Shown here: in pieces, positions 5,033-39,689 of the stretch | Position numbering within the stretch: the stretch's first letter is position 1 | Layout: each line of letters begins with the position of its first letter | From: a virus | Taxonomy: Duplodnaviria > Heunggongvirae > Uroviricota > Caudoviricetes | Strand: one strand, 5' to 3' | Length of the DNA stretch: 43,613 bases | IMG/VR virus record: IMGVR_UViG_2654587728_000013 | Location: 1-43,613 of that record | Translations under genes and position numbers: made by a program | The notes under the pieces: generated by a model | The model's input: the letters and a program-made list of their open reading frames with translations, nothing else | The model's database searches: none | What the model was told of the DNA's origin: nothing

Positions 5033-5188
5033 ATTACCATTTTGGTAATACCTGGAGATGCAGGAAAACCACGAAGTGGTGGTTTCTGCCTGAGCGATGC
5101 GCTCATGTATTACCTTTTGGGTAATAATCAGATCAAAAAGTGATTGTGTCAATAGGTATGACGAGAAAAAAATTACCGTTTTGGTAAT
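5033..5188. promoter_or_regulatory. OL-like operator triplet: ATTACC-N5-GGTAAT at 5033..5049, 5109..5125, 5172..5188
   Basis: Three perfect 17-bp palindromes spaced 76 and 63 bp; minus-strand TTGACA (5147-5152) 17 bp from GATTAT overlapping site 2. Confidence 0.6.
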
Positions 5189-5895: not shown

Positions 5896-5959
5896 ATTAC
5901 CATAAAGGTAAAGTTACCATAACGGTAATAATCATTGATTTTTTCACCAGAAAGGTAAT
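5896..5959. promoter_or_regulatory. OR-like operator triplet: 5896..5912, 5913..5929 (TTACC-N5-GGTAA) and 5943..5959 (TCACC variant)
   Basis: Divergent intergenic region between repressor and Cro-like gene; plus-strand TTGATT (5935-5940) then TAATAA/ATAATT about 17 bp downstream overlapping third site. Confidence 0.6.
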
Positions 5960-8232: not shown

Positions 8233-8249
8233 ATTACCAAAAGGGTAAT
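8233..8249. promoter_or_regulatory. operator copy ATTACC-AAAAG-GGTAAT
   Basis: Perfect TTACC-N5-GGTAA in intergenic region upstream of resolvase gene. Confidence 0.5.
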
Positions 8250-8294
8250 AAAATATGCGCATTGCTATTGAAATTAACCCATTTGTGGTTTTAA

Positions 8295-8311
8295 ATTACC
8301 TGAGAGGTAAA
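8295..8311. promoter_or_regulatory. operator copy ATTACC-TGAGA-GGTAAA overlapping RBS of resolvase gene
   Basis: Perfect TTACC-N5-GGTAA ending 3 bp before ATG at 8314. Confidence 0.5.
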
Positions 8312-10229: not shown

Positions 10230-10314
10230 TGCCGCCAGTTAAAGTGGTTGTTATTACGCTGGCTATGTGCGCTATCTGCCAGTTAATTGCTGCCTCTGGA
10301 ATGGGGATTTGGTG

Positions 10315-10653
10315 ATGGCTAAATCCGCAGCAGAGCGCAAAGCAGCGCAGCGTGCCCGCCAGGCTGAATCTGGTAACCGCAAGCTGGAATTGCAACTAGA
10401 CGAGCAGGAACTGGAGATGCTGGCGAGAAACTGCGCCGCCCGTCGCCCTGGTCGGGCGCCGTATGACATGAACGAGTACATCGCGTTGCTTATACGCCAG
10501 GATGATGCGCGGGTTCGTGGGCGCATCAAGTCAATCAGCTCTAACCGTTGCGGGAAATGTGGCGATGCGCTGCCAGTTGAGTCGTGTCCGTGTGATGGTG
10601 ATTCGGCATGCTGGGTGACGCGTGGCTGGCATGATACTAAACTAGCGGTGTGA
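10315..10653 (+). CDS. hypothetical Cys-rich protein
   Basis: ORF 10267..10653 trimmed to MAKSAAERKAAQ; C-terminal CGKCGD...CPCDGDSAC cluster; last gene before terminase. Confidence 0.45.
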   Translation: MAKSAAERKAAQRARQAESGNRKLELQLDEQELEMLARNCAARRPGRAPYDMNEYIALLIRQDDARVRGRIKSISSNRCGKCGDALPVESCPCDGDSACWVTRGWHDTKLAV

Positions 10654-10661
10654 CATGTCAC
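10650..10661. repeat. 12-bp palindrome GTGACATGTCAC (copy 1 of 3) overlapping stop codon
   Basis: Exact palindrome; same sequence at 13166..13177 and 31721..31732, each next to a GC hairpin. Confidence 0.6.
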
Positions 10662-10720: not shown

Positions 10721-10737
10721 ATTACCAAAACGGTAAT
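10721..10737. promoter_or_regulatory. operator copy ATTACC-AAAAC-GGTAAT upstream of terminase genes
   Basis: Perfect TTACC-N5-GGTAA between terminator and small terminase start. Confidence 0.5.
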
Positions 10738-10756
10738 TATTACTTCGGTGGTAACA

Positions 10757-13165: not shown

Positions 13166-13177
13166 GTGACATGTCAC
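13166..13177. repeat. 12-bp palindrome GTGACATGTCAC (copy 2 of 3)
   Basis: Exact copy; lies between stop of 13182..13613 and its terminator hairpin. Confidence 0.6.
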
Positions 13178-24170: not shown

Positions 24171-26792
24171 ATGCCAACAGTACCAACAGTCACCGGTCGA
24201 CAGGTAGAAAGCAGAGGGTTTCAGTCTCCTGGGTTTCAGGCATTCGATCAGCCAAATATCGGTGATGCTATCGTCGACGCTGGCAGCAAAGCCATCAACG
24301 TATTTGGAGAGGCCAAGCAACGGGCAAATGTGGCACTTACCCAAGAGGCAACTCTTCAACTGAATGCGGTTGGCAACGATCTGCTAAATAACCCTGATTC
24401 AGGATTCATGAATCTGCAAGGGAAGAACGCGATCGGCAAGGGGCAGGAGTACGTGCAGCAGTTTGATTCTCAGGCGCAGAGCATTGCAGCAAGCCTGCCG
24501 GATGAGCAGGCGCGAAATGCGTTTCTTCAGCAGGCACAGCAGCAGAGAATCCAGTTCAAGACGACCGCTGTTCGCCATGAAGTTGGGCAGGTGCGTCAGT
24601 ACGAAGCAGGTATGCAGGAGGGAACGTTACGTTCGCTGGCACAGCAGGCGATTTCTCCTGGTCTGTTTGTTCCTGCATTGATGAATGCTCGTAATTCTAT
24701 TATCGCTTATGGGAAAGCCCACGGACAGAGCGATGAGGAAATAGAGTCTAATTTCGTGCAGTGGCGTGAGCAGGCCGCCAACCGCGCCAGCGAAGCATGG
24801 TATACACCAACCTATCAGCAAATCATGGGGCCGGAAGGTAAGATCGAAGTTACCGACACTCCGAGCGAATCGCAGCTTTTTTCCGCGATGATCTGGCAGG
24901 AATCCGGAGGTAATCAGTATGGCAAAGACGGTTTACCACTGGTATCTCCGAAAGGTGCAGTAGGGGTGGCGCAGGTGATGGAGGATACGGGGCCGGAAGC
25001 AGCACGACTGGCTGGCGTACCGTGGGATCGTGATAAGTGGCTGAACGATACGCGCTACAATGCGAAGCTTGGTCAAGCCTACTTCGGCGCGCAGATGAAG
25101 AAGTATGACAATAATCCTGTACTGGCGGTGGCGGCGTATAACGCTGGGCCAGGTGCGGTTGATGGATGGATAAAGCAGTTTGGCGACCCGCGTACTGGTG
25201 CGGTGAGCAATGAGCAATTCGCTGCGGCAATCCCTTATGATGAAACTCGCAACTATGTCGCGAAAGTAACCGGCAGCGCTCCGGCGATACCAGGAACTGC
25301 TACGATGGAAAACCTCATCAATCAGCCTTTCTGGGATGCGATGAGTCCGCAGAACAAATCAGCGATGATGAGCAAAGTGGCAGGCATGTACGATATGCAA
25401 GCCGCAGCTGGTCGCGTGTCATTGCAAAGCCGCATGCAGGATGACCTTGCTAAATTAGAGTCAGGACAGAAAGTTAACCCGATCTCGGAACGTGAGTGGC
25501 TGGCGGTCATGCCGTTGCAGGCAAGCCCGGCGGAGCGCATTCAGATGCGCGAGTCATTCCAGCAATATCAGCAGGCGATGACGCTGCAACCGGTATATCA
25601 ATCCATTGTTCAGGGTTCTGCGCAGCAGGGTATCGCTGCGGTGCAGTCTATGGTGCCGCAGGAAGATGACCCTGACTTTAAATTTAAGCAGAGCTTGTAC
25701 GCAACTGCGCAGGCCAAACTGAATCAGGTAATTAAAGCGCGCGAGTCCGACCCGGGTACGTGGCTACAAGCCAACTCGCCGGTGGTGAAAAACGCCTTTG
25801 AGCAATATCAGAACAACCAGGCATCAGGTGAATATCTGGTTTCCCGTCTGCAAGCAGAGAAAGACCGCCTTGGTATCAATAGTAAGAAGGTACTTCCTGA
25901 CGCCATGGTTAACAACCTCATTTCTCAGATCGATAACAATAAAGAATCAAGCGTAACCGCCATTCAGTCGGTGGCGCAGTCGTTCGGAAAATACTCCGAT
26001 CAGGTTATGCAGCAGGTGCAGAAAAGCGCATATCCAGCGCTTCAAGTCATCATGGCGACCAATAATCCTCGGGCCGCCAACGCGCTCTGGCAAAACCGCA
26101 GTGTTAAAACTTCTGACCTGCGCGGCAGCTTTGAGAAGACAGACGCCGACAGCGCTGATTCATCTTGGAATGACCAGGCAAAAGATTTTGCCGGGACGAT
26201 GGTTGTACAGCCTGGCGGGTCTGCCGTGTGGAACAACTTCAACGAGCAGGGTAAACGCCTGACCTACACCTATATGCAGCGCGGCATGTCGCCTGGCGAT
26301 GCAGCAAAACAGGCATATCAGGACGTTCTCGGTGAGCAGTATCAGACCAATGGCACCTGGCGTATGCCTAACAACGCCGGGCATGATATTCGTGACGTTA
26401 ATGACGGCGCTAACGTGTACCTGAAGAATCTGTCAGCAGATCAGATCATGCCGCTAATCGGTGACGCCCGTCTGCCGGATGAGGTTAACCGAGAGCAAAG
26501 TATTTCCCGCATTCGTGATAACGCACAGTGGGTAACCAACAGCGACGAAACAGGGCTTACGCTGATGATGAATGGTCTGTTGATCAACAATGCGCAGGGG
26601 CAGCCGATTACAGTTTCGTTTGCTGACCTCGCGAAACTTGGCGCTGGCAACCGTACAACTTGGAACAGCCTGACCAAATTCGTGCAGACGCCGGTTAAGT
26701 ACACTCCGGGCCAGTCGAAGAATTACACGGTAGAAAGTCAGCGTGAAAATCTGATCAACATTATCCAGAACGGCCAGCAGACGGGACGATAA
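24171..26792 (+). CDS. internal virion protein with lytic transglycosylase (SLT) domain
   Basis: 873 aa; WQESGGNQYGKDG...GVAQVMEDTGPE...AAYNAGPGAVDGW matches SLT signature. Confidence 0.75.
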   Translation: MPTVPTVTGRQVESRGFQSPGFQAFDQPNIGDAIVDAGSKAINVFGEAKQRANVALTQEATLQLNAVGNDLLNNPDSGFMNLQGKNAIGKGQEYVQQFDSQAQSIAASLPDEQARNAFLQQAQQQRIQFKTTAVRHEVGQVRQYEAGMQEGTLRSLAQQAISPGLFVPALMNARNSIIAYGKAHGQSDEEIESNFVQWREQAANRASEAWYTPTYQQIMGPEGKIEVTDTPSESQLFSAMIWQESGGNQYGKDGLPLVSPKGAVGVAQVMEDTGPEAARLAGVPWDRDKWLNDTRYNAKLGQAYFGAQMKKYDNNPVLAVAAYNAGPGAVDGWIKQFGDPRTGAVSNEQFAAAIPYDETRNYVAKVTGSAPAIPGTATMENLINQPFWDAMSPQNKSAMMSKVAGMYDMQAAAGRVSLQSRMQDDLAKLESGQKVNPISEREWLAVMPLQASPAERIQMRESFQQYQQAMTLQPVYQSIVQGSAQQGIAAVQSMVPQEDDPDFKFKQSLYATAQAKLNQVIKARESDPGTWLQANSPVVKNAFEQYQNNQASGEYLVSRLQAEKDRLGINSKKVLPDAMVNNLISQIDNNKESSVTAIQSVAQSFGKYSDQVMQQVQKSAYPALQVIMATNNPRAANALWQNRSVKTSDLRGSFEKTDADSADSSWNDQAKDFAGTMVVQPGGSAVWNNFNEQGKRLTYTYMQRGMSPGDAAKQAYQDVLGEQYQTNGTWRMPNNAGHDIRDVNDGANVYLKNLSADQIMPLIGDARLPDEVNREQSISRIRDNAQWVTNSDETGLTLMMNGLLINNAQGQPITVSFADLAKLGAGNRTTWNSLTKFVQTPVKYTPGQSKNYTVESQRENLINIIQNGQQTGR

Positions 26793-26793
26793 T

Positions 26794-28500
26794 ATGCCGA
26801 TTTATACAGATGACCCAGGGCAGGGAATAAACCAGCCGCTGTCGAATGCCCCATCAGGGCTTGGTGAATCGCTGCTTTCCTCCCTGAAAGAGGGATTCAA
26901 AGAGGGGCCTGTTGTGTCAGGTTATCGGTTTTCTCAAGCCGACCAACTGGCAAATGACCCAAATTCGACCATCGTCAGTAAATCTGACGCGGAAACACGC
27001 CTTAAAGAGTACGGCGTTAAAAGTATCAATGTGCCTGACGGCGGTGTTACACAAACATTCCTCGACCATGTGATCAGCGAGCGCAGAGAAACTCTGGCGA
27101 AGCAGCAGATCGCCATGTCTGCCCCGTCTGGATGGGTTGCCACTCCGCTTAACTTTGCCGCAAACCTTGCAGGATCAATGGCTGATCCCGGTAACGTGGC
27201 TTTGGCGCTGGTCCCGTTCGGTGGAGAAGCAAAGGCGGCAACTATGCTTGGGCGCTTCGGTGAGCGTCTTTCCACCGGTGCTCGGCTTGGCGCTGCTCAG
27301 GCCATTGCCACCGTACCTCTGACGGCACAGGCAGCAGCGGCAGAAGGAGATGACTTCACATATGGCAACGCGCTGGAGAGCACCTTCTTTAACACCATCG
27401 CTGGCGGGTTGATGCACGCTGGCGGCGGGCTGATATCGGATGTGGTACGCTCCCGCAGGGCTGGTACTGTTGAAAATCCTGCTGCCTCGCAAGACGTTCA
27501 GCCTGTCGCTGATGCGCAGCCAACACCGGTGTTTACGCCTGACAATATACCGGCAGGCGTAAATATTCCTGAGTCCGGCACCAACGCCGATCTGTCAGCG
27601 GCAATCGCGCGGGATGCGGAAGCGTATGCCTACAGCCGCGCCTATGATGATGTTGTGCCGGAATATATGGCAAGGCAGCAGGAGCTACAGACAGGGAGCA
27701 TTGACAACGTTGCGGATCTGCGAACTGAGTTGGTGACCAACAACAGGCAAAGTGAGGCACTTGACGCAACTCTGGCCCAGCGCACGACCGATTACCAGGC
27801 GCAACGCATGAAATTCAAAGCAGCACGAGCCAGGGCGCAGCGAGATATTGAGGTTGAGAAAGACGCCATCACCGCGCGTAACCAGGAAATTACGCAACAG
27901 ATTGAACGTAATGCTGCAGCAGAGCAGGCAAAAGGCAGAGAGGCGCAACTGTCCCGCAAAGAGATACCTGACGACTTGGCGCCGTTGATAGCCCAGCGTG
28001 CGCAACAGATTCGCGAAAGCATGCAGATGTCGCCTGTGGCTGGCGCAGTGCGCACTGCGTCGGCAGCGGTTCGTGAGGCTGACTGGAGCGTTAACCAGCA
28101 GGCGTATCGAGGCGCACTGGCGCACATGATGGAAGGGCGCTCGCCTGATATTGAGCCATTCTATGATCTGCACAAACCAGCTCTACGCGAGCGTGCTATC
28201 CAGCGCATACAAAATCCGGTGCGGCAGGCTGATGAAGGTTCCCGCGCCGTCAGTGAAAGTGCGGATCGTGTGTGGCAGGATACGCAGAAGGTTGACCATG
28301 AAATAACAGCGGCTACCGCTGATCTGGAAAATGAATTTAATATCAGTGATGCGCTGCTGAACGACATTGCCACTGACAATCCTGACCTGGCTGCGTCGAT
28401 GCGGGAGAATATTGCAGCGATCCGTGCAGAGGCCAGTGACGACTCTATCGGAAAAGCGTACCGCGCTTTCGCCGCCTGTCTGATTAACCGGGGGCTGTAA
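26794..28500 (+). CDS. internal virion / ejection protein (putative)
   Basis: 568 aa; in injection-protein block. Confidence 0.5.
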   Translation: MPIYTDDPGQGINQPLSNAPSGLGESLLSSLKEGFKEGPVVSGYRFSQADQLANDPNSTIVSKSDAETRLKEYGVKSINVPDGGVTQTFLDHVISERRETLAKQQIAMSAPSGWVATPLNFAANLAGSMADPGNVALALVPFGGEAKAATMLGRFGERLSTGARLGAAQAIATVPLTAQAAAAEGDDFTYGNALESTFFNTIAGGLMHAGGGLISDVVRSRRAGTVENPAASQDVQPVADAQPTPVFTPDNIPAGVNIPESGTNADLSAAIARDAEAYAYSRAYDDVVPEYMARQQELQTGSIDNVADLRTELVTNNRQSEALDATLAQRTTDYQAQRMKFKAARARAQRDIEVEKDAITARNQEITQQIERNAAAEQAKGREAQLSRKEIPDDLAPLIAQRAQQIRESMQMSPVAGAVRTASAAVREADWSVNQQAYRGALAHMMEGRSPDIEPFYDLHKPALRERAIQRIQNPVRQADEGSRAVSESADRVWQDTQKVDHEITAATADLENEFNISDALLNDIATDNPDLAASMRENIAAIRAEASDDSIGKAYRAFAACLINRGL

Positions 28501-31046
28501 TGGCTAACGAATTTCTTACGCAATGCGAAATGACCGTCAATGCAGCTGCCGGGCGCAAGCTGTCTGATGACGAAATGGAATCTTTGGTGCGTGACATGAA
28601 CGACACCACAAACCGGATACTGGCTGGTAATGAAGCACTGACGCTGGAAGAAGCAGCGATGCGCGCCGCGCAGGAGCTTGGTAATCGCGAGCAACTGGCT
28701 AAAGTCATTGAGGCACGGAATAAGGCCATTAATACCCGTATTGCAGCTCAGCGCCTTGGCGAGCTTCGCCGGACTTGGAAAGACCGTCCGGACATCGGTC
28801 TGGAGGCTATTCTTGTCGGACGTAATGACGCGCGCACTGGTTCCCGCCGCTCGGTATCCTCTGAGGTTGCCCAACTGCGCGGTAAGTATCATGCTGGTAT
28901 CAACTATGATTTCGACCAGGCAGGACTGGTTAAATTTATTGCCAGTGGCAGCAATGACCGCGAGATAGCCGACGCCATGTGGCGCATTGGCCGCGGACAG
29001 AAAACGGACGGTATGACGCCGCAATCAGTCAGTGCCGCTAAGATCATCATGAAGTGGCAGGAAACTGCGCGCGTGGATGAAAACCGTGCTGGTGCCTGGA
29101 TTGGTAAGATGCCTGGCTACATCGTCCGGCAGTCGCATGACATACTGAAAATCCGTGCCGCCGGGTATGAATCCTGGCGCAATACCATTCTGCCGCGGCT
29201 GGATGATGCCACCTTTGACGGGATCACAGACCGAGAAGGGTTCCTGCGTGGTGTCTACGACGGCCTTGCCTCCGGTGTGCACCTTACCTCTGAAAAACCA
29301 GACTGGATGAATGGCTTTAAGGGATCGGCGAATGCGGCCAAACGAGCCAGCCAGGAGCGGGTGTTGCACTTCAAAGACGGTGTTAACTGGCACGAATACA
29401 ACGAGCAATTCGGAACTGGCAGCCTGCGTGAGGCAGTATTCGGCGGACTGAACAGCGCGGCGCGCACTACGGGCATGATGCGCGTGCTTGGTACCAACCC
29501 GCAGAACATGTTCAAGTACCTGACAGACACCATCGCAAAAGACGTGAGCAAGCAGAGCAACCCTTCGGCGCTGGCTGATTTCATGACCAAGGTGCGCCGC
29601 CTGAATCGCACGGTTATGCCACAGGTTGATGGATCGCTGAATATCCCCGGCAGTGTTGGCTGGGCTAATGCCTCAGCCAACGTGCGCGGCTGGCTGCGTA
29701 TGAGTCAGCTTGGAGGAGCGGTCATTTCATCTTTTAACGACGTGCCAATCTCGGCGACAGAAATGCGGTATCAGGGCCAGAACTTCATGCAGGCGCTGAC
29801 CGGCGCGATGAAGGGGCGCTTTTCCCGCTACACCAGTGATGAGCAGAAGGAGATCCTTTCATCTATCGGCGTTTACTCCGACGCGATGACGCAGGAAATC
29901 ATCCGTCGCATGTCTGGCGACGACAGCATGAGCGGCAAGATGGGGCGTGCGCAGCAGCTATTCTTCAAATACAACCTTATGAACTTCTGGACAGAATCCG
30001 GGCGTAACAGCAACGCCATGATGATAACAAACTGGCTGGCGAAGAACGCCGATCAGCAATTTTCTGCACTGCCGGAGGACCTGCGCCGCGTTCTGGACCT
30101 GCACGGCATAGGTGACGCTGAATGGAATATCTACCGCAGCATGGACATGGCAGACAGCGAAGGCCGCAAATTCATGACGACCAGCGGAATTCGTGGCGTT
30201 CCGGATGAGGTGATAGCCTCATATGTTGAAGGAAAAGGCATGAAGGTCACCGAGCGATCTATTGCCGATGCGAGAGACACGCTGGAAAGCCAACTTCGTG
30301 GGTATATTCTTGACCGACTAAACATCGCTATGTCAGAGCCGGGAGATCGTACGCAGGCGTTTATGAAGATGGGCACTGTACCAGGAACAGTAGCTGGGGA
30401 GGCAATACGTTTCGCTGGTCAGTACAAATCGTTCACTGCGAGTTTCATGCAGAACGTGCTTGGACGTGAGGTATTCGGGCGCGGTTATACTCCCGCTGGC
30501 CTGGGTGAATCAAAAACAGGATCGCTGACGAATGCGCTGCTGCGTAACGGAAAAGGTGCATTCTTGGGGGCGGCAAACCTGTTCGTCTGGGCAACCATGT
30601 TTGGCTATATCTCTATGCAGTCGAAACTATTGCTTAAGGGGCAGACGCCGCGTCCGGCAGATGCCAAGACATTCCTCGCAGCCGCATCTCAGGGCGGCGG
30701 CCTAGGCATCTTGGGCGACTTCATGTTTGGCGAAGTCAATCGCATGGGTGCTGGTCCAGTGACATCATTGATGGGGCCAGCCGCGTCGAACGCTGATAGC
30801 ATTATCACGCTGTTCCAGCAGACAACGCGCGGCGATGCAGACCTGGGTGACTGGTATCGCACCGCGCTGGACAATACGCCTTTCCTTAACGTGTTCTGGC
30901 TGCGCACAGCAATGAATGGTTTAATATTGAACCGTATACAGGATGCTCTTGACCCTGGATCACTGGAGCGCTATCAGCGCCGTGTTGAACGGGAGCAGGG
31001 TAACGACTTTCTGATCCCACCATCGCAGTTCATGCTAGGGAAGTAA
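28500..31046 (+). CDS. large internal virion / ejection protein (putative)
   Basis: 848 aa; last large gene of the core block. Confidence 0.5.
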   Translation: MANEFLTQCEMTVNAAAGRKLSDDEMESLVRDMNDTTNRILAGNEALTLEEAAMRAAQELGNREQLAKVIEARNKAINTRIAAQRLGELRRTWKDRPDIGLEAILVGRNDARTGSRRSVSSEVAQLRGKYHAGINYDFDQAGLVKFIASGSNDREIADAMWRIGRGQKTDGMTPQSVSAAKIIMKWQETARVDENRAGAWIGKMPGYIVRQSHDILKIRAAGYESWRNTILPRLDDATFDGITDREGFLRGVYDGLASGVHLTSEKPDWMNGFKGSANAAKRASQERVLHFKDGVNWHEYNEQFGTGSLREAVFGGLNSAARTTGMMRVLGTNPQNMFKYLTDTIAKDVSKQSNPSALADFMTKVRRLNRTVMPQVDGSLNIPGSVGWANASANVRGWLRMSQLGGAVISSFNDVPISATEMRYQGQNFMQALTGAMKGRFSRYTSDEQKEILSSIGVYSDAMTQEIIRRMSGDDSMSGKMGRAQQLFFKYNLMNFWTESGRNSNAMMITNWLAKNADQQFSALPEDLRRVLDLHGIGDAEWNIYRSMDMADSEGRKFMTTSGIRGVPDEVIASYVEGKGMKVTERSIADARDTLESQLRGYILDRLNIAMSEPGDRTQAFMKMGTVPGTVAGEAIRFAGQYKSFTASFMQNVLGREVFGRGYTPAGLGESKTGSLTNALLRNGKGAFLGAANLFVWATMFGYISMQSKLLLKGQTPRPADAKTFLAAASQGGGLGILGDFMFGEVNRMGAGPVTSLMGPAASNADSIITLFQQTTRGDADLGDWYRTALDNTPFLNVFWLRTAMNGLILNRIQDALDPGSLERYQRRVEREQGNDFLIPPSQFMLGK

Positions 31047-31047
31047 T

Positions 31048-31419
31048 ATGAACAGAATTATATTAATGACTCTTCTTATTTTTTTTGTTGGAAAAGCTTC
31101 TGCTGATACTACATCACCTTTAATGATTCAGCCTAAAAATGGAGAAACATTGGAGGATTCTAAAAAGCATACAATGGAATACTTTGGATGCATAAAAGGG
31201 CAGGCTGTAAAGTATGCCAAGACAGGAGAAAGTGTTGATTCCATATCAAAAGCTTCGGTTGTGTCATGCGAGTCATATATACCAATGATCGCCGAGTCGA
31301 ATATATATTATTTAAACTCTTCGCAAGATGGTAAGCGGCAATTTACAGAAAGGCTAAAATCTGATGGTGAGAGATTAGCCACAAAATTTGCCATGGATGA
31401 GAAGATTAAAAATAAATAG
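31048..31419 (+). CDS. small secreted protein (AT-rich moron)
   Basis: 123 aa; signal peptide MNRIILMTLLIFFVGKASA; visibly low GC (estimated ~35%, not computed). Confidence 0.55.
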   Translation: MNRIILMTLLIFFVGKASADTTSPLMIQPKNGETLEDSKKHTMEYFGCIKGQAVKYAKTGESVDSISKASVVSCESYIPMIAESNIYYLNSSQDGKRQFTERLKSDGERLATKFAMDEKIKNK

Positions 31420-31427
31420 GTGACCAC

Positions 31428-31724
31428 ATGCAAGCTATTGGTTTCATTGTTTACATAGTTGTTGGTCTTTTTCAGTTGGCTGCGATCATGGCTGGTCTTG
31501 AATCGTGGTGGGGACTGCACTGGATAGTGGCTGCACCCATTGCTTTCATCGTTAGTTATATCCCGTTGGTCGGTTCCATTGTTGGAATGGTTGGCGCTGT
31601 CGACGTATGGCGTTGGGAATGGTGGCAGGCAGGGCTTCTTTTCTTTGGCGGCCTGGTTTTTGCTATTGCGTGCGGGGGGATGTCTTCGTTCTTCGAATGG
31701 CTATCCTTCAGGAAAAGAGCGTGA
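31428..31724 (+). CDS. small three-TM membrane protein
   Basis: 98 aa; three hydrophobic helices; RBS AGGTGA; stop overlaps GTGACATGTCAC palindrome. Confidence 0.55.
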   Translation: MQAIGFIVYIVVGLFQLAAIMAGLESWWGLHWIVAAPIAFIVSYIPLVGSIVGMVGAVDVWRWEWWQAGLLFFGGLVFAIACGGMSSFFEWLSFRKRA

Positions 31725-31732
31725 CATGTCAC
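31721..31732. repeat. 12-bp palindrome GTGACATGTCAC (copy 3 of 3)
   Basis: Exact copy overlapping stop of 31428..31724; GC hairpin 25 bp downstream. Confidence 0.6.
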
Positions 31733-31748
31733 AAAGGCCACTGCACCC

Positions 31749-31771
31749 ACAAAAAAGCCCGCGTCGCGGGC
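31749..31771 (-). terminator. rho-independent terminator (minus strand; possibly bidirectional)
   Basis: GCCCGCG-T-CGCGGGC hairpin with A-run on plus / T-run on minus, directly after stop of 31772..32236. Confidence 0.55.
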
Positions 31772-32236
31772 TTACTCTTCTTCATCGCTACCAAAGAGCG
31801 GGTTATCGTTGTAGTCAGAGAGAAGAAACGGTATGTGCTCCCTCGAATACCCAACCACAACTATTTCATCTCCGTCTTTCGCATAGTGAATGCATTCATT
31901 TGAATGCTTCCCACCAGGGTTGAATTTTAAGTCAACAGTATGATTTCTGAAGGTGTTAGGATACCACGTGGGACCACAATGATAGTGCCAGTAATTTTCC
32001 TGCTCATAATTGTCTGAACCGGGAATTTTATCATAGTTGTCGTCAACCCAAGATGGCTTGTTTTTACCTACAAGCGTTCTGCCATTGGCAACATCTTCCA
32101 TAAAATTTTGGATGGTTTCCAACTCCAGGTCCGTGAGATGTGGTCCATCTACTGCGAAAGGTTCGTTACTGGCACCGGTTATAAAGCCAAATGCAACCCT
32201 AGGCTTAAACTTCAAGTTACACCCCTGACAGGTCAA
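31772..32236 (-). CDS. hypothetical protein with acidic C-terminal tail
   Basis: 154 aa; only start-like codon at 5' end is TTG immediately after in-frame TAA of upstream small ORF; start uncertain. Confidence 0.4.
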   Translation of the reverse strand: MTCQGCNLKFKPRVAFGFITGASNEPFAVDGPHLTDLELETIQNFMEDVANGRTLVGKNKPSWVDDNYDKIPGSDNYEQENYWHYHCGPTWYPNTFRNHTVDLKFNPGGKHSNECIHYAKDGDEIVVVGYSREHIPFLLSDYNDNPLFGSDEEE

Positions 32237-32404
32237 TTATTTTGCGCGAAATGCCGCCTTGAAGTCGTTGAAAGAAGTCCCTGACTGATAAGTCATGTCC
32301 TGGTCGCGATCTTTGTTAGCGCGACCAAGCATTACTTTACCAATGGCATCCCAGCATTGCTTGGCTTGCTCATTTTGTTGAGTCCGATTTTTCAACGCTG
32401 TCAT
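32237..32404 (-). CDS. small ORF (55 aa) in same frame as downstream 154-aa ORF
   Basis: Found by manual translation (below ORF-track size cut-off); strong RBS AGGAGA; ends at TAA followed in frame by TTG of next ORF. Confidence 0.35.
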   Translation of the reverse strand: MTALKNRTQQNEQAKQCWDAIGKVMLGRANKDRDQDMTYQSGTSFNDFKAAFRAK

Positions 32405-32499: not shown

Positions 32500-33198
32500 T
32501 CAGAACTTACCAGTCATGCTGTTGATGTACTGCGCATGAGTCTGGATATCGCGCAGGCATTTACTGGCGCCGACAATGTAGCTCATCATGGCCGCGAACT
32601 CTGCTACAGCACCTTCAACATCATGCCCGTCTGCGTCCAGTTGGCGTAGCAGGCTCATCATCAAAGAGTGCTCTGTCAGACCAAGAACACCTTCAGGTGA
32701 ATGGATGTGTTCACGGTAGTTTGGCTTGAGTGGGGCGCTGTATTCCTGTTTCTCTTCCGTCTTCATCGCTTCCAGAATGGCGGGCATGAAGCTGGCTACA
32801 ACCTTTTGCGCTTTGTCTGCCGGTGATAATTCTTCACGAACGTATCGACCAGTGCGGCGGATTTGCGGAAGAACGTCGCCAGTTACCCATTTGCGGAAAC
32901 GATAGGGGATAGTACCAGGAGTTACCGCATCGCGGCAGCGCAGGATCAGAGTGTAGAGGCCGGATTCAGAGATGATGAGGGTATTAGGGTTCCCTCGTTT
33001 TCCGTCGGTTAAAGCGACGGTATTCTTTTCGTCGTCATCCAATTTAAGCAGAGCATCACGGTTGTTTGATATACCAAGAGCATTACATACATCTAACGCA
33101 ATAAACCATGGCTCGCCGTCGATGATGATTGCACGAATATCGGCTTGCGATTCGAAAGAAAAAACTGAAGTATTTTTTTGAGTTGTCATAGTGATCAC
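32500..33198 (-). CDS. Bro-N domain antirepressor
   Basis: 232 aa; N-terminal FSFESQADIRAIIIDGEPWFIALDVCNALGI matches Bro-N; distinct C-terminal domain. Confidence 0.7.
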   Translation of the reverse strand: MITMTTQKNTSVFSFESQADIRAIIIDGEPWFIALDVCNALGISNNRDALLKLDDDEKNTVALTDGKRGNPNTLIISESGLYTLILRCRDAVTPGTIPYRFRKWVTGDVLPQIRRTGRYVREELSPADKAQKVVASFMPAILEAMKTEEKQEYSAPLKPNYREHIHSPEGVLGLTEHSLMMSLLRQLDADGHDVEGAVAEFAAMMSYIVGASKCLRDIQTHAQYINSMTGKF

Positions 33199-33457
33199 CT
33201 TTTAGTCTGGTTAATCACCACCGGAGGTTCCAATCTCGGAGGTGGTGAACTGTGCAGGGTTGGAACTACCGGCTAAAAGGACCCGGCGCACCTTTCGGTG
33301 CCCCCACACAGCCCACCATAATGCGAATGTGGCCGTGCTTAACGCATAAAAAAACCGCTTGCGCGGTGAATGCGCCTTTTAGTATCCGGGGTTCCAATCC
33401 CGGCACTGGATTTTGCCAGTGCCTGATCACTATGGCACAAGTATTTTGCGTTGTAAA

Positions 33458-36732: not shown

Positions 36733-37698
36733 CTACTGTCCTGTAGAAATAATTAAAGGAATACCATTTATTAAATTGAAGTAACTTTTATATCCAACAA
36801 AGAAAGCAGAAGGATACTTATCACTCACATTTAATCTTTTCCCTAATCCGTATTTAGTGTCTAACCATACCACAACTTCATCATTATGTTTGTTCTTTGC
36901 AGTCATGCGGTAAACATTTGGATATTTACCCTTAGGGCCACTATCATTTGGTCCGCTGGAGGTGTCTTTCCATTCTTGAGAGTCACCTGATTCATAACAA
37001 ATTGAACTGTTAGCATACAGTTGGGAAAGTGCAGTTTGTAGTCCGTAGTAAGTGTGTATCCTCACCTTTTCAAGGGGAACCATTTTGATATGCACATCTG
37101 CACGTCCTTCATTAAATTTCATTTTTACTTTCTGTTGAATAATCTCTCTACCAGAACCATCTTTCTTTTTGGTGTTAAAGCCCTGTATGTTAGACGTAGT
37201 TTCTATCACTAAATCATTTGTATACCCCTTAAATGTATCATTGACCATCTTCCCATCTACCCATACCTGAAGAGAAACATGCCTGGCTGTAGGAGAGCCA
37301 CTCTGGTTCCCATTAAACCCATGCCAGCCACCTGTGAACTCAGCTATTGGGTCATCACCATCTTCATTACTTTCTGCGCTGACCATAATTGGTCCAATGA
37401 TGTCCGTGTCGAATGTTTGAACTGTCGTTAACCCATCCAGTCTGCCACTGGGAAAATCTGTATACTTCCAAGAAAAATTTTTGTAAATCCTTGAAAATGA
37501 AAATATTTTGTTAAGACCAGTTCTATTAAGCTCAATTACCCGGTCTTCAAGTAGTGAATATTTGTACTGAATTTTTATGTCTGCGTTCGGAACATCAACA
37601 CTAACGTACTGTTTTTCTTTTGCAACATCCTCAGACGCTGTTCCTGCTAACGTGCAAGCTATGATGATAAACAAAGAAATTGATATCGTTTTTTTCAT
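36733..37698 (-). CDS. predicted lipoprotein, function unknown (AT-rich moron)
   Basis: 321 aa; signal peptide with lipobox-like IIAC; low GC; convergent with tailspike. Confidence 0.55.
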   Translation of the reverse strand: MKKTISISLFIIIACTLAGTASEDVAKEKQYVSVDVPNADIKIQYKYSLLEDRVIELNRTGLNKIFSFSRIYKNFSWKYTDFPSGRLDGLTTVQTFDTDIIGPIMVSAESNEDGDDPIAEFTGGWHGFNGNQSGSPTARHVSLQVWVDGKMVNDTFKGYTNDLVIETTSNIQGFNTKKKDGSGREIIQQKVKMKFNEGRADVHIKMVPLEKVRIHTYYGLQTALSQLYANSSICYESGDSQEWKDTSSGPNDSGPKGKYPNVYRMTAKNKHNDEVVVWLDTKYGLGKRLNVSDKYPSAFFVGYKSYFNLINGIPLIISTGQ

Positions 37699-37834: not shown

Positions 37835-37894
37835 TTGTGTATGATGTGATCACCAACTAATGGGGGTCTTTATGCACAGTAAACGGTGGTCACC

Positions 37895-38299
37895 ATGTCA
37901 GCCCAGCTAACCAGTGAGTCTTTAAATCAGTGGCTTAGTATGGGTTCTCTGGCTGCAGTGATCGCAGGAGTTCCACCCGAAGTGGCGCTTGGTGCTTTAT
38001 CAGGTGCGGTAATATTTATTACCTCAGCCGTTGAGTATCCAATACGCCGCCGGGTTCTCCTGTCGATGCTCAGCTTCCTCTGCGGGCTTCTATTCTACAA
38101 ACCAACTGCATCAATCCTTATCGGCGTAGCCAGCCTGATCCCAACTATCACACAGGATTCATTCGAGAAAGGGATCGTCTTCTCTGCTGGCGCGTTCGTG
38201 TCGGCAATCGTCGCAGTACGTATTGGTATCTGGCTCTATCACCGTTCCGACAATCCACGCGATTTAATCCCGGGGAGAAAAGACGATGACAACTCATGA
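37895..38299 (+). CDS. holin-like membrane protein (about 4 TM)
   Basis: First gene of lysis cassette; multiple hydrophobic helices; ORF track start is GTG at 37886. Confidence 0.45.
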   Translation: MSAQLTSESLNQWLSMGSLAAVIAGVPPEVALGALSGAVIFITSAVEYPIRRRVLLSMLSFLCGLLFYKPTASILIGVASLIPTITQDSFEKGIVFSAGAFVSAIVAVRIGIWLYHRSDNPRDLIPGRKDDDNS

Positions 38300-38594
38300 G
38301 CTGCTTTTACTGATTGCCAATGCGGTTATCTGTTCTGCGATAGCAATCCGCGTCGGAACCTTCCGGCGTAATGGATCGCAACACCGCCGGTGGGGTGGGT
38401 GGATAGCCTACTTCCTTATCGTGGCATCAGCCAGCATCCCCGTCCGCGCCGCATATGCAATCTGGTATCACACACCAATGGCCGCTGATTTATCAGAGGT
38501 CATCATCAATGCTGTCATGCTTGCCGCTGTTCTGAAGACGCGCGGCAATGTCGTGCAGATATTCAAAATATCGAGGTCTCAACATGGACATTAA
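38286..38594 (+). CDS. holin/antiholin-like membrane protein (3 TM)
   Basis: 102 aa; three TM helices, basic C-terminus; overlaps neighbours. Confidence 0.45.
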
Positions 38595-39210
38595 CCAGTT
38601 CCGGCTAGCAGCCGGTATTACTGAACAACTGGCCACGCGCTGGTACCCACACATCACCGCAGCCATGAATGAGTTTGGCATTATTAAACCTGATGACCAG
38701 GCGATGTTTATTGCGCAGGTCGGGCATGAGTCCGAAGGGTTTACCCGGTTACAGGAAAACTTCAACTACAGCGTTAACGGTCTGTCCGGGTTTATCCGTG
38801 CCGGGCGTATCACTCCAGACCAGGCCAACGCACTCGGCAGGAAAACATATGAGAAGTCTCTTCCTCTGGAGCGCCAGCGCGCGATCGCCAATCTGGTGTA
38901 CAGCAAGCGCATGGGTAACAACGGCCCAGGTGATGGATGGAATTATCGCGGTCGTGGACTTATCCAGATCACTGGTCTGAACAACTACCGGGATTGCGGT
39001 AATGGTCTGAAGGTTGATCTGGTCGCTCATCCTGAACTGCTGGCGCAGGATGAATACGCGGCCCGCAGCGCGGCGTGGTTCTTCGCCAGCAAAGGTTGCA
39101 TGAAGTACACGGGAGACCTAGTGCGCGTCACGCAGATTATCAACGGTGGCCAGAACGGTATCGACGACCGGCGAGCACGTTACGCCGCTGCTCGTAAGGC
39201 ACTGTTATGA
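38584..39210 (+). CDS. endolysin, glycoside hydrolase family 19 (chitinase-like)
   Basis: [17 protein letters not shown] and QVGHESEGF motifs; start MDINQF (ORF track 38548). Confidence 0.8.
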
Positions 39211-39689
39211 TCTGGGCATTCATCAAAGCGTACTGGAAACAGTTGCTTATCGTAGTGATGCTTGCGGCGCTGGTTATCGGTGGAGTGGTTGCGTGGAAGG
39301 ATAACGGCGACCGGAAGTATGCCGCCGGGTATGCTCAGGCGCAGGCAGACCAGAAACAGGCTGATGATAAAGCCCGTAAACACGACGAACAGGAGAAAGT
39401 GATCAATGAACGTGAAGCGCAGCAGAGGATCGACCAGGCGCGTAATGATGCTCTTGATGCTTCCGCTCGCGCTGGCCGGTTGCAGCAACAGCTCGTTGCC
39501 ATCCGTGAGCAGCTCAGGCAGTATAACTCCACTGTCGGCGCTGGGACGTCAGCCGCAGATACCGGCGTTTTGCTTACCGACGTGCTCAGCAAATCTCTCG
39601 AGCGAAACCGACAACTGGCAGAGTACGCTGACCGGGCCGCCGAAGCCGGAAGAGTCTGTGAAAAGCAGTACGATTCGCTGACTAGGTGA
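39207..39689 (+). CDS. i-spanin (Rz-like)
   Basis: 160 aa; N-terminal TM helix then Gln/Ala/Arg-rich coiled coil; follows endolysin. Confidence 0.7.
39406..39681 (+). CDS. o-spanin (Rz1-like lipoprotein) embedded in +1 frame
   Basis: 91 aa; RBS AGGAGA; signal peptide with lipobox LALAGC; Pro/Ser-rich; fully nested in i-spanin gene. Confidence 0.6.
   Translation: MNVKRSRGSTRRVMMLLMLPLALAGCSNSSLPSVSSSGSITPLSALGRQPQIPAFCLPTCSANLSSETDNWQSTLTGPPKPEESVKSSTIR

Follow-up and report, generated by a model that had tools for sequence, protein, structure and literature searches.

The window analyzed here is a stretch of 43,613 nucleotides (virus record IMGVR_UViG_2654587728_000013, taken over its whole length) and corresponds to the complete genome of an epsilon15/phiV10-like temperate podophage (prophage) of the genus Uetakevirus. 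Directly behind its ejection-protein genes lie two small open reading frames (ORFs), ORF A and ORF B, which encode a predicted periplasmic protein and a predicted inner-membrane protein. Comparison with related loci indicates that they are accessory cargo in a swap-prone slot and not conserved virion components, and that they are probably protective. The explanation that we tentatively favor is that A and B are two independent accessory factors of the moron type that protect the envelope, through superinfection exclusion or envelope immunity. The kind of gene is already known, since accessory envelope genes occur in phage late operons and have precedents in exclusion and immunity; the families of A and B themselves are uncharacterized.

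Cargo of the slot behind the last ejection gene

The gene order of the window agrees with that of epsilon15: terminase, portal, capsid, three large internal/ejection proteins, and then ORF A and ORF B. At the DNA level it is closest to Escherichia coli prophages, with which it is about 85% identical, and to the phages phiv142-3, HEMP4, and BUCT711. The three ejection proteins have, in order, 873 amino acids (aa; 24171-26792), with an SLT lytic-transglycosylase domain at about residues 228-370, 568 aa, and 848 aa. The last of them, E3 (28500..31046, plus strand; phrog_684 “virion structural protein,” E = 8e-263), is the positional counterpart of gp17 in the gp15-gp16-gp17-gp18 layout of epsilon15. 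It forms the 5' boundary of what we call the “gp18 slot,” the position directly after the E3 stop codon.

We surveyed this slot in 65 viral contigs whose E3 is 86-100% identical to that of the window. It holds at least 10 unrelated families of small proteins, nearly all with a signal peptide, a lipobox, or transmembrane (TM) spans, and for every cassette type in the relatives the start codon of the cargo lies 1-10 nucleotides (nt) past the E3 stop. The most frequent cargo is a 186-aa signal-peptide protein (17 loci), followed by ORF A (16 loci, two being E. coli prophages), a 66-68-aa protein with two TM spans (14 loci), B alone (6 loci), and a 118-aa signal-peptide protein (3 loci). Lipoproteins and several other TM proteins are found in a few loci each. 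B accompanies A in 7 of the 14 viral contigs with A and in one E. coli prophage with A. In epsilon15 itself, gp18 at this position is a 64-aa protein with two TM spans. By definition, a moron is an extra gene that is present in some phages and absent from their relatives, and a classic moron has its own promoter. The cargo of the slot varies among contigs with 88-100% identical E3, which is the presence/absence pattern of a moron.

One of the alternative cargos belongs to a family of known function. Three related loci (L011, 4903-5259; L037, 4903-5259; L068, 4306-4695) encode a protein of 118-129 aa with a signal peptide that matches the Rap1a family (Pfam PF18602, E = 1.7e-12). In the periplasm, Rap1a, a helical immunity protein with a disulfide bond, neutralizes a type VI peptidoglycan endopeptidase (PMC3852654). 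We found no paper in the literature on Rap1a genes carried by prophages in the sense of such a slot. Profile comparisons reveal few links among the cargos. Those with hhalign gave no relation of B to E3 (as a possible case of TM mimicry), to the 68-aa two-TM cargo, or to a 108-aa three-TM cargo, and A shows no profile relation to the 186-aa cargo. A 160-aa lipoprotein in locus L009 aligns with A at both cysteines of the latter (E = 3.8e-4, probability 36%) and may be a remote relative of A.

Both ORFs exist exactly where the initial annotation of this DNA, made from the sequence alone, had drawn them (31048 to 31724). The features that it described are also borne out: a clear signal peptide in A (n-region, hydrophobic core, A-x-A motif), three TM segments in B (three hydrophobic spans and a confident helical model), a position as the last genes of the virion operon (three ejection proteins upstream, convergent genes downstream), and an end at a palindrome and terminator (GTGACATGTCAC, which overlaps the stop of B, and then the hairpin at 31755-31773). 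Its picture of an AT-rich pair whose composition betrays a foreign origin holds for one gene of the two. ORF A has a GC content of 0.349 (0.306 at third codon positions), compared with 0.551 (0.615) for the E3 gene and 0.50 for the window, and is compositionally foreign. ORF B has a GC content of 0.498, is not AT-rich, and has an unremarkable composition that does not deviate. The foreign composition of A, together with the presence or absence of both genes among close relatives, points to horizontally acquired cargo and not to conserved structural components.

Features of ORF A

ORF A (31048..31419, plus strand) was delimited from the reading frame, alignments, and an AlphaFold2 model. It encodes a 123-aa protein predicted to be exported by the Sec pathway to the periplasm, with an all-helical mature part of 104 aa. 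There is no intergenic space between it and E3. The stop codon TAA of E3 occupies 31044-31046, the ATG of ORF A starts at 31048 after a single nucleotide, and a Shine-Dalgarno-like sequence, AGGGAAG (31037..31043, plus strand), lies within the 3' end of E3. The predicted signal peptide spans 19 codons (31048..31104, plus strand). Its sequence, MNRIILMTLLIFFVGKASA, followed by DTT, combines a positive n-region with a hydrophobic core (KD11 = 3.26) and has A-x-A at positions -3/-1, which places the predicted cleavage between ASA and D. The hydrophobicity scan found no lipobox cysteine and no other hydrophobic span beyond the signal peptide. A signal peptide of the same type is conserved in all 16 aligned homologs.

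Two cysteines, Cys48 and Cys74, are invariant across 17 aligned sequences, down to 22% identity. The pair would fit a periplasmic disulfide bond. The AlphaFold2 model (predicted local distance difference test [pLDDT] score of 87) has four to five helices behind the signal peptide (35-57, 63-73, 77-89, and 93-122). Hence, we infer that the product of ORF A is a secreted periplasmic helical protein, exported via Sec and probably stabilized by a disulfide. The median pairwise ratio of nonsynonymous to synonymous substitution rates (dN/dS) is 0.09, indicating strong purifying selection.

An exhaustive profile search with ORF A returned 17 matches. The best of these, with 40 matched stretches in 2352 aa, proved on inspection to be an unrelated tandem-repeat protein, and a 583-aa match was discarded likewise as a repeat protein; after removal of the repeat proteins, the remaining small proteins are true distant homologs. 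No family in Pfam, PHROG, PADLOC, or NCBIfam corresponds to ORF A. A lone ribokinase match from the NCBIfam search of A and B scored 15 bits where the cutoff is 300 (E = 0.009) and was dismissed as noise. A sequence search of the PDB with the ORF A profile gave just a 34-residue chance match to a copper ATPase. A fold search of the PDB gave no meaningful structural neighbor, and neither Spackle nor Rap-type immunity proteins were among its matches.

Features of ORF B and the A-B junction

ORF B (31428..31724, plus strand) encodes a 98-aa predicted inner-membrane protein, as judged from the reading frame, its match to phrog_3075, the alignment, and the AlphaFold2 model. Its three hydrophobic spans lie at approximately residues 3-24, 30-58, and 68-88, and the protein ends in a basic C terminus, FRKRA. 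It is rich in glycine and tryptophan and has an invariant motif, W-x-W-x-W-W-Q-A. The AlphaFold2 model is a helical membrane bundle (pLDDT of 89). From these features, ORF B is predicted to sit in the inner membrane with its N terminus out, its C terminus in, and the Trp-rich loop at the periplasmic face. The match to phrog_3075 is strong (E = 1.5e-52), and this family has no assigned function in PHROGs. No Pfam (E <= 0.1), NCBIfam, or PADLOC family was matched, and the model has no structural neighbor among viral models. We rejected a holin identity for B: phrog_3075 was the sole match, no Pfam holin family was hit, and the lysis cassette is elsewhere in the window. Purifying selection on B is very strong, with a median pairwise dN/dS of 0.04 overall and 0.02-0.04 for close alleles, and a dN of 0.03 at dS of >1.

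The A-B junction is 8 nt long (31420..31427, plus strand), and the AGGTGA Shine-Dalgarno sequence of ORF B overlaps the TAG stop codon of ORF A. The junction motif TAGGTGAC(C/T)ACATG travels with B, as it is also found ahead of B in phiv142-3, a phage that lacks A. We consider both ORFs to be real genes, beyond what chance would produce, because they are conserved in many loci, have low dN/dS values, and give confident AlphaFold2 models. The homology and structure searches that had been proposed for this pair thus had a divided outcome: homologs are numerous, but no Pfam, NCBIfam, or PADLOC family and no fold match of known function emerged. The literature yielded nothing on A or B genes, and a study of phiv142-3 makes no mention of orf12, the B homolog of that phage.

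Independent distribution of A and B

The two genes had been presented as a pair, and this does not hold in an obligate sense. A lies upstream of B in just 8 of the 80 viral contigs that encode B (at >=82% identity), and A also occurs cleanly without B. Clean loci of the types E3-A-palindrome, E3-B-palindrome, and E3-A-B-palindrome were all found. Most of the viral contigs with B (71 of 80) belong to the phiv142-3 lineage, in which E3 is 24% identical to that of the window and B 94% identical. Conversely, the three ejection proteins of locus L070 are 93-96% identical to those of the window (E3, 96%), and its A-like allele is 34% identical. These identities imply that cargo has been exchanged independently of the ejection proteins. 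Some of the “A-only” loci have a more complex history. In an E. coli PF9285 prophage (L002, 4920-4960), the locus keeps the A-B junction and about 10 first codons of B (MQAIGFIG...). Since these codons are retained before unrelated sequence, B was lost or truncated in such E. coli loci by later insertion or deletion.

We did find a statistical association between A and B (odds ratio of 6, Fisher P = 0.009, 63 loci). We place no weight on it, because the seven A+B loci include four that match the window fully in E3, A, and B and another whose A is 99% identical. We infer that the adjacency of A and B in the window reflects the stacking of two cassettes.

The wider distribution of the two families also differs. 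Distant homologs of A (22-34% identity) occupy the same slot in all three contexts examined, and A itself is missing from all deposited phage genomes and plasmids that we searched. The B family reaches further. In Yersinia and Salmonella podophages with a different architecture, it follows the last of the large internal proteins. In an element of Pyramidobacter (Synergistota), a B homolog (L085, 5953-6252; hhalign probability of 99.2%) starts 8 nt past a LexA/CI-like repressor gene and has an integrase gene downstream of it. A location between repressor and integrase is a classic place of prophage-expressed protective genes. A scan for relatives of this Pyramidobacter homolog found none. In Alphaproteobacteria, B-like genes (L088, 5001-5646; L090, 5001-5594; L093, 5001-5622) are each followed by a gene for a DUF6804 small membrane protein. 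Serine recombinases adjoin them on islands in L088 and L093, the two loci whose neighbors were checked.

A second small envelope protein is often encoded beside B. It can be A, a lipoprotein (L030), a DUF6804 protein, or, in phiv142-3, the product of an unannotated 57-aa ORF with two TM spans (L004, 4828-5001).

The 3' boundary of the slot

The slot ends at a perfect 12-bp palindrome, GTGACATGTCAC (31721..31732, no strand), which overlaps the TGA stop codon of ORF B and recurs in related loci, where it forms the conserved 3' edge of the cargo slot. The window has three exact copies (10650-10661, 13166-13177, and 31721-31732), compared with about 0.003 expected for a 12-mer. Each lies at or just past the stop codon of a gene, 1-25 nt ahead of a GC-rich terminator hairpin in the direction of transcription: the first is 3' of a phrog_536 regulator gene (10267-10653), just ahead of the small terminase gene; the second, on the minus strand, is 3' of an HNH-like 143-aa gene; and the third is 3' of ORF B. 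Read in either orientation, the palindrome includes a TGA and an ATG. It is present in 56 of the 76 scored related loci, whatever the cargo, and 55 of these copies lie at most 2.5 kb downstream of the E3 stop. Copies are also found 3' of gp18 in epsilon15 and 3' of the B gene in phiv142-3; the copies outside the window include those in L081 (7518) and L083 (2142; epsilon15) and those in most of L001-L069. The palindrome could be a protein-binding site tied to termination or antitermination, or a recombination anchor.

Behind it lies a GC-rich hairpin, AAGCCCGCG-T-CGCGGGCTT (31755..31773, no strand), recognized from its sequence as a predicted bidirectional intrinsic terminator with a 9-bp stem and a 1-nt gap between its arms. 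It is common to the ORF B side and to a convergent 154-aa gene, whose stop codon falls in the stem. Because its minus-strand T-run, TTTTTTGTGGGT, is better than the plus-strand one, ACTCTTCTTC, the hairpin should serve the convergent minus-strand genes at least as well.

Comparison with known exclusion and immunity systems

No direct homology, fold, or defense-database match of A or B to a superinfection exclusion system was found, and no model of PADLOC-DB matched A, B, the neighboring 154-aa protein, or two alternative cargos. Several known systems nevertheless offer partial parallels. SieA of phage P22 is an inner-membrane protein with three TM spans that blocks DNA delivery, and escape mutations map to ejection proteins (PMC10883804). 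B resembles it in being a small protein of the inner membrane, by prediction, with three predicted TM helices. Like A and B, the sieA gene lies in the stretch from the last ejection gene to the antirepressor/tailspike region in the genome of a temperate podophage specific for the O antigen, and it is present in some relatives only and comes in several unrelated sequence types (PMC10883804). There are also differences. The alignment profile of B has no detectable homology to SieA (hhalign probability of 0.3%, E = 0.2). SieA has 162-164 aa and a cytoplasmic motif, FxRYPxEAxxFNK, whereas B has 98 aa and a Trp-rich periplasmic loop and lacks the motif. Moreover, sieA has an annotated promoter of its own and lies on the opposite strand, whereas A and B share the orientation of the late operon and lack a recognizable promoter.

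In phage T4, Spackle (gp61.3) is a small, Sec-exported helical protein with one disulfide that inhibits the virion-borne gp5 lysozyme (PMC7677548). A is likewise small, helical, and Sec-exported, with a predicted disulfide, and an arrangement over two compartments is shared with Spackle and Imm; the virion here also carries a peptidoglycan-cleaving SLT ejection protein. On the other hand, the fold search of the PDB with A gave no Spackle match, and neither A nor B (the latter at E <= 0.1) has a Pfam match. Pfam contains a T4 Imm family. The imm and sp genes of T4 are early genes and not adjacent, whereas A and B are adjacent and at the end of the late operon of a temperate phage. A further idea, that A is an anti-signal-arrest-release (SAR) endolysin factor, was rejected: the endolysin of the window has no hydrophobic N terminus.

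The Rap1a/Tai4 family (PF18602) shares with A the Sec signal, the mature size (about 100 aa), the all-helical bundle, and the conserved cysteines, which form a pair, and a true Rap1a-family gene fills the identical slot in three related contigs. Yet A has no PF18602 match, and its comparison with the Rap1a-like cargo gave an hhalign E value of 0.34. Phage morons such as bor and lom of lambda are, like A and B, extra genes of the late operon with envelope products, a presence/absence distribution, and a terminator behind them, with an atypical GC content here in A only. They differ in that A and B have no detectable promoter and that the 3' edge of the slot is fixed by the 12-bp palindrome in most relatives. 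Finally, epsilon15 gp18 and the 66-68-aa two-TM proteins share with A and B the same position, the tight coupling to a gp17-type gene, and the palindrome and terminator downstream, but are unrelated to B (hhalign E = 0.27-0.36) and to A.

Possible functions of A and B

The initial annotation had suggested that the pair could mediate superinfection exclusion or surface modification. Nothing contradicts this idea, and it gains some indirect support: the cargos of the slot are nearly all exported or membrane proteins, including one of the Rap1a family, and a B homolog lies in a lysogeny module. Under the explanation that we favor, A and B would alter the envelope of the phage-carrying or phage-producing cell, and later attackers would be stopped there. 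The role of A would be to bind and neutralize a periplasm-acting protein of the invader; the favored target would be the SLT-domain ejection protein or another ejected core protein, in analogy to Spackle/gp5 and Rap1a/Ssp1. B would interfere in the membrane with the assembly or opening of the DNA-delivery channel, in analogy to P22 SieA and T4 Imm. Each of the two could act alone.

Several observations weigh against this explanation, and the most important concerns expression. By their sequence context, A and B look like terminal genes that are co-transcribed with the late operon. A consensus scan upstream of A or B revealed no sigma-70-like promoter above background, although a weak or activator-dependent promoter could escape such a scan. 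The motif TTACC-N5-GGTAA, a repressor operator according to the annotation of the epsilon15 record, occurs in the window 13 times exactly and 5 times with one mismatch (0.8 expected), at 5034-5187, 5897-5958, 8234-8310, 10722-10754, 14252, 32420, 33459, and 33842. These copies are concentrated at the immunity region and precede the small terminase, portal, 55/154-aa minus-strand, 92-aa, and tailspike genes; none is near A or B. Synonymous diversity toward the 3' end of E3 is the same as elsewhere (0.43-0.48, to within 9 codons of the stop), and this undiminished diversity gives no indication of an embedded promoter. Expression may therefore be late-lytic only, a poor time to set up exclusion, and this is the main weakness of the explanation. 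In addition, the strong purifying selection, especially on B, agrees better with a conserved (perhaps host) target than with an arms race against variable ejection proteins, and the indifference of B to the type of E3 suggests that it has no specificity for one lineage of ejection proteins. The constraint on B and its independence of E3 together point to a conserved, possibly host-side target and keep the rival explanations alive.

One of these, which we consider unlikely, is that A and B provide lysogenic-conversion immunity to interbacterial toxins, A against a type VI cell-wall hydrolase or a similar periplasmic toxin and B against a pore-forming bacteriocin or effector. The Rap1a-family gene in the identical slot of L011, L037, and L068 is an immunity gene of the type VI secretion system, A falls into the same architecture class as Rap1a, Rap2a, and Tai4 (Sec signal, small helical bundle, structural disulfide), and the immunity proteins of pore-forming colicins are three-TM proteins of about 100 aa. 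The B family is also found on non-phage islands of Alphaproteobacteria beside recombinases, and strong purifying selection would fit a conserved toxin target. However, the A profile is related neither to the Rap1a-like cargo (at the E value of 0.34 given above) nor to any solved immunity protein, Pfam gives no colicin-immunity or Tai/Tsi family for A or B, A was found solely in the slot behind the ejection genes and never beside an effector gene, and no lysogen promoter was found. Another rival is surface modification, with A and/or B inhibiting or redirecting a host envelope enzyme or transporter and thereby altering the receptor; the extreme conservation of B would fit a conserved host target. 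The epsilon15-like phages are serotype converters, and gp22 of epsilon15 is annotated as a two-TM inhibitor of the host O-antigen alpha-polymerase. We nonetheless find this very unlikely here: the known conversion genes of the genus sit downstream of the tailspike gene, outside the slot, A and B are unlike any glycosyltransferase, acyltransferase, Wzy, or GtrA family, and members of the B family are also present in Synergistota and Alphaproteobacteria, where the envelopes are different.

The position of the genes invites two further explanations. Their orientation with the late operon, which they abut, the lack of an own promoter or operator, and their end at the operon terminator would suit a role in the lytic cycle, for example in protecting the producing cell from lysis from without or from early damage to its envelope by the ejection proteins of sibling virions, or in the timing of lysis. 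Nearly all relatives keep some envelope protein at the exact position of the slot, and T4 Spackle also affects resistance to lysis from without. Such a role is still rather improbable, as another part of the window holds a complete lysis cassette with two holin-family genes, a gene for a soluble endolysin, and an Rz-like spanin gene, non-homologous cargo among phages with near-identical structural genes is typical of dispensable genes, and B homologs occur in a lysogeny module and on non-phage islands. The same position, at the end of the virion operon right after the ejection genes, could be that of small structural proteins or chaperones of the ejection apparatus. This last explanation is close to refuted. 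Homologs of A and B are not conserved virion components of all relatives: both genes are absent from epsilon15 and from most relatives with >90% identical ejection proteins. B keeps 94% identity next to an E3 of 24% identity, and neither a protein with a cleavable Sec signal and cysteines (A) nor one that is almost wholly membrane-spanning (B) readily enters a capsid assembled in the cytoplasm.

The envelope-protection explanation can also be taken further, to a version that we regard as quite unlikely. The slot would then be a dedicated cassette-exchange locus with which epsilon15-like phages collect envelope “immunity” proteins of diverse folds, with its edge set by GTGACATGTCAC and the terminator, a module that closes two further transcription units of the genome. 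A would represent a new family of periplasmic inhibitors, directed against virion-borne lytic transglycosylases or ejected core proteins, and B a new family of intramembrane blockers of DNA delivery, ranging from Enterobacterales to Synergistota and Alphaproteobacteria.

If A and B do block entry or neutralize envelope toxins, two uncharacterized families would join the short list of envelope-level exclusion factors, and the Klebsiella, Salmonella, and E. coli prophages that carry them could make strains refractory to related podophages, which matters for phage therapy. If they are late-operon passengers without a phenotype, the locus is a moron locus of the ordinary kind. The comparison across relatives is of more use than the two genes alone: one bounded slot across a genus is a ready panel of the envelope cargo of temperate podophages.

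Neighboring genes and other observations

The genes just 3' of ORF B are convergent to it. Two of them code for proteins of 154 and 55 aa and the third for a Bro-N antirepressor, with C4 and isrK RNAs before the latter. Beyond the antirepressor gene follow the tailspike gene, the lysis cassette (37886-39689), and the integrase gene. The lysis cassette comprises two holin-family genes, an endolysin gene, and an Rz-like spanin gene; the endolysin is soluble and has no SAR or signal N terminus. Rfam identifies a C4 antisense RNA (33238-33323, minus strand; 77 bits) and an isrK Hfq-binding RNA (33348-33422, minus strand; 76 bits) directly upstream of the Bro-N antirepressor gene (32500-33198, minus strand), an arrangement that forms an antirepressor control module in the style of P1/P7.

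The convergent 154-aa gene (31772-32236, minus strand) belongs to phrog_5954 and the 55-aa gene (32237-32404, minus strand) to phrog_8607, both of no known function. Their position varies among relatives and holds YafO-type or HicA toxin-antitoxin genes or a DUF4760 protein in other loci. Hence, a second cargo site lies between the slot and the antirepressor gene.

A 321-aa AT-rich ORF (36733-37698, minus strand; GC content of 0.376) is convergent to the tailspike gene. It matched no PHROG, Pfam, or NCBIfam family. In relatives, its position is taken by genes that modify the O antigen, namely, the beta-polymerase of epsilon15 and Acyl_transf_3 proteins in L070 and L080, and the ORF may be a new serotype-conversion gene.

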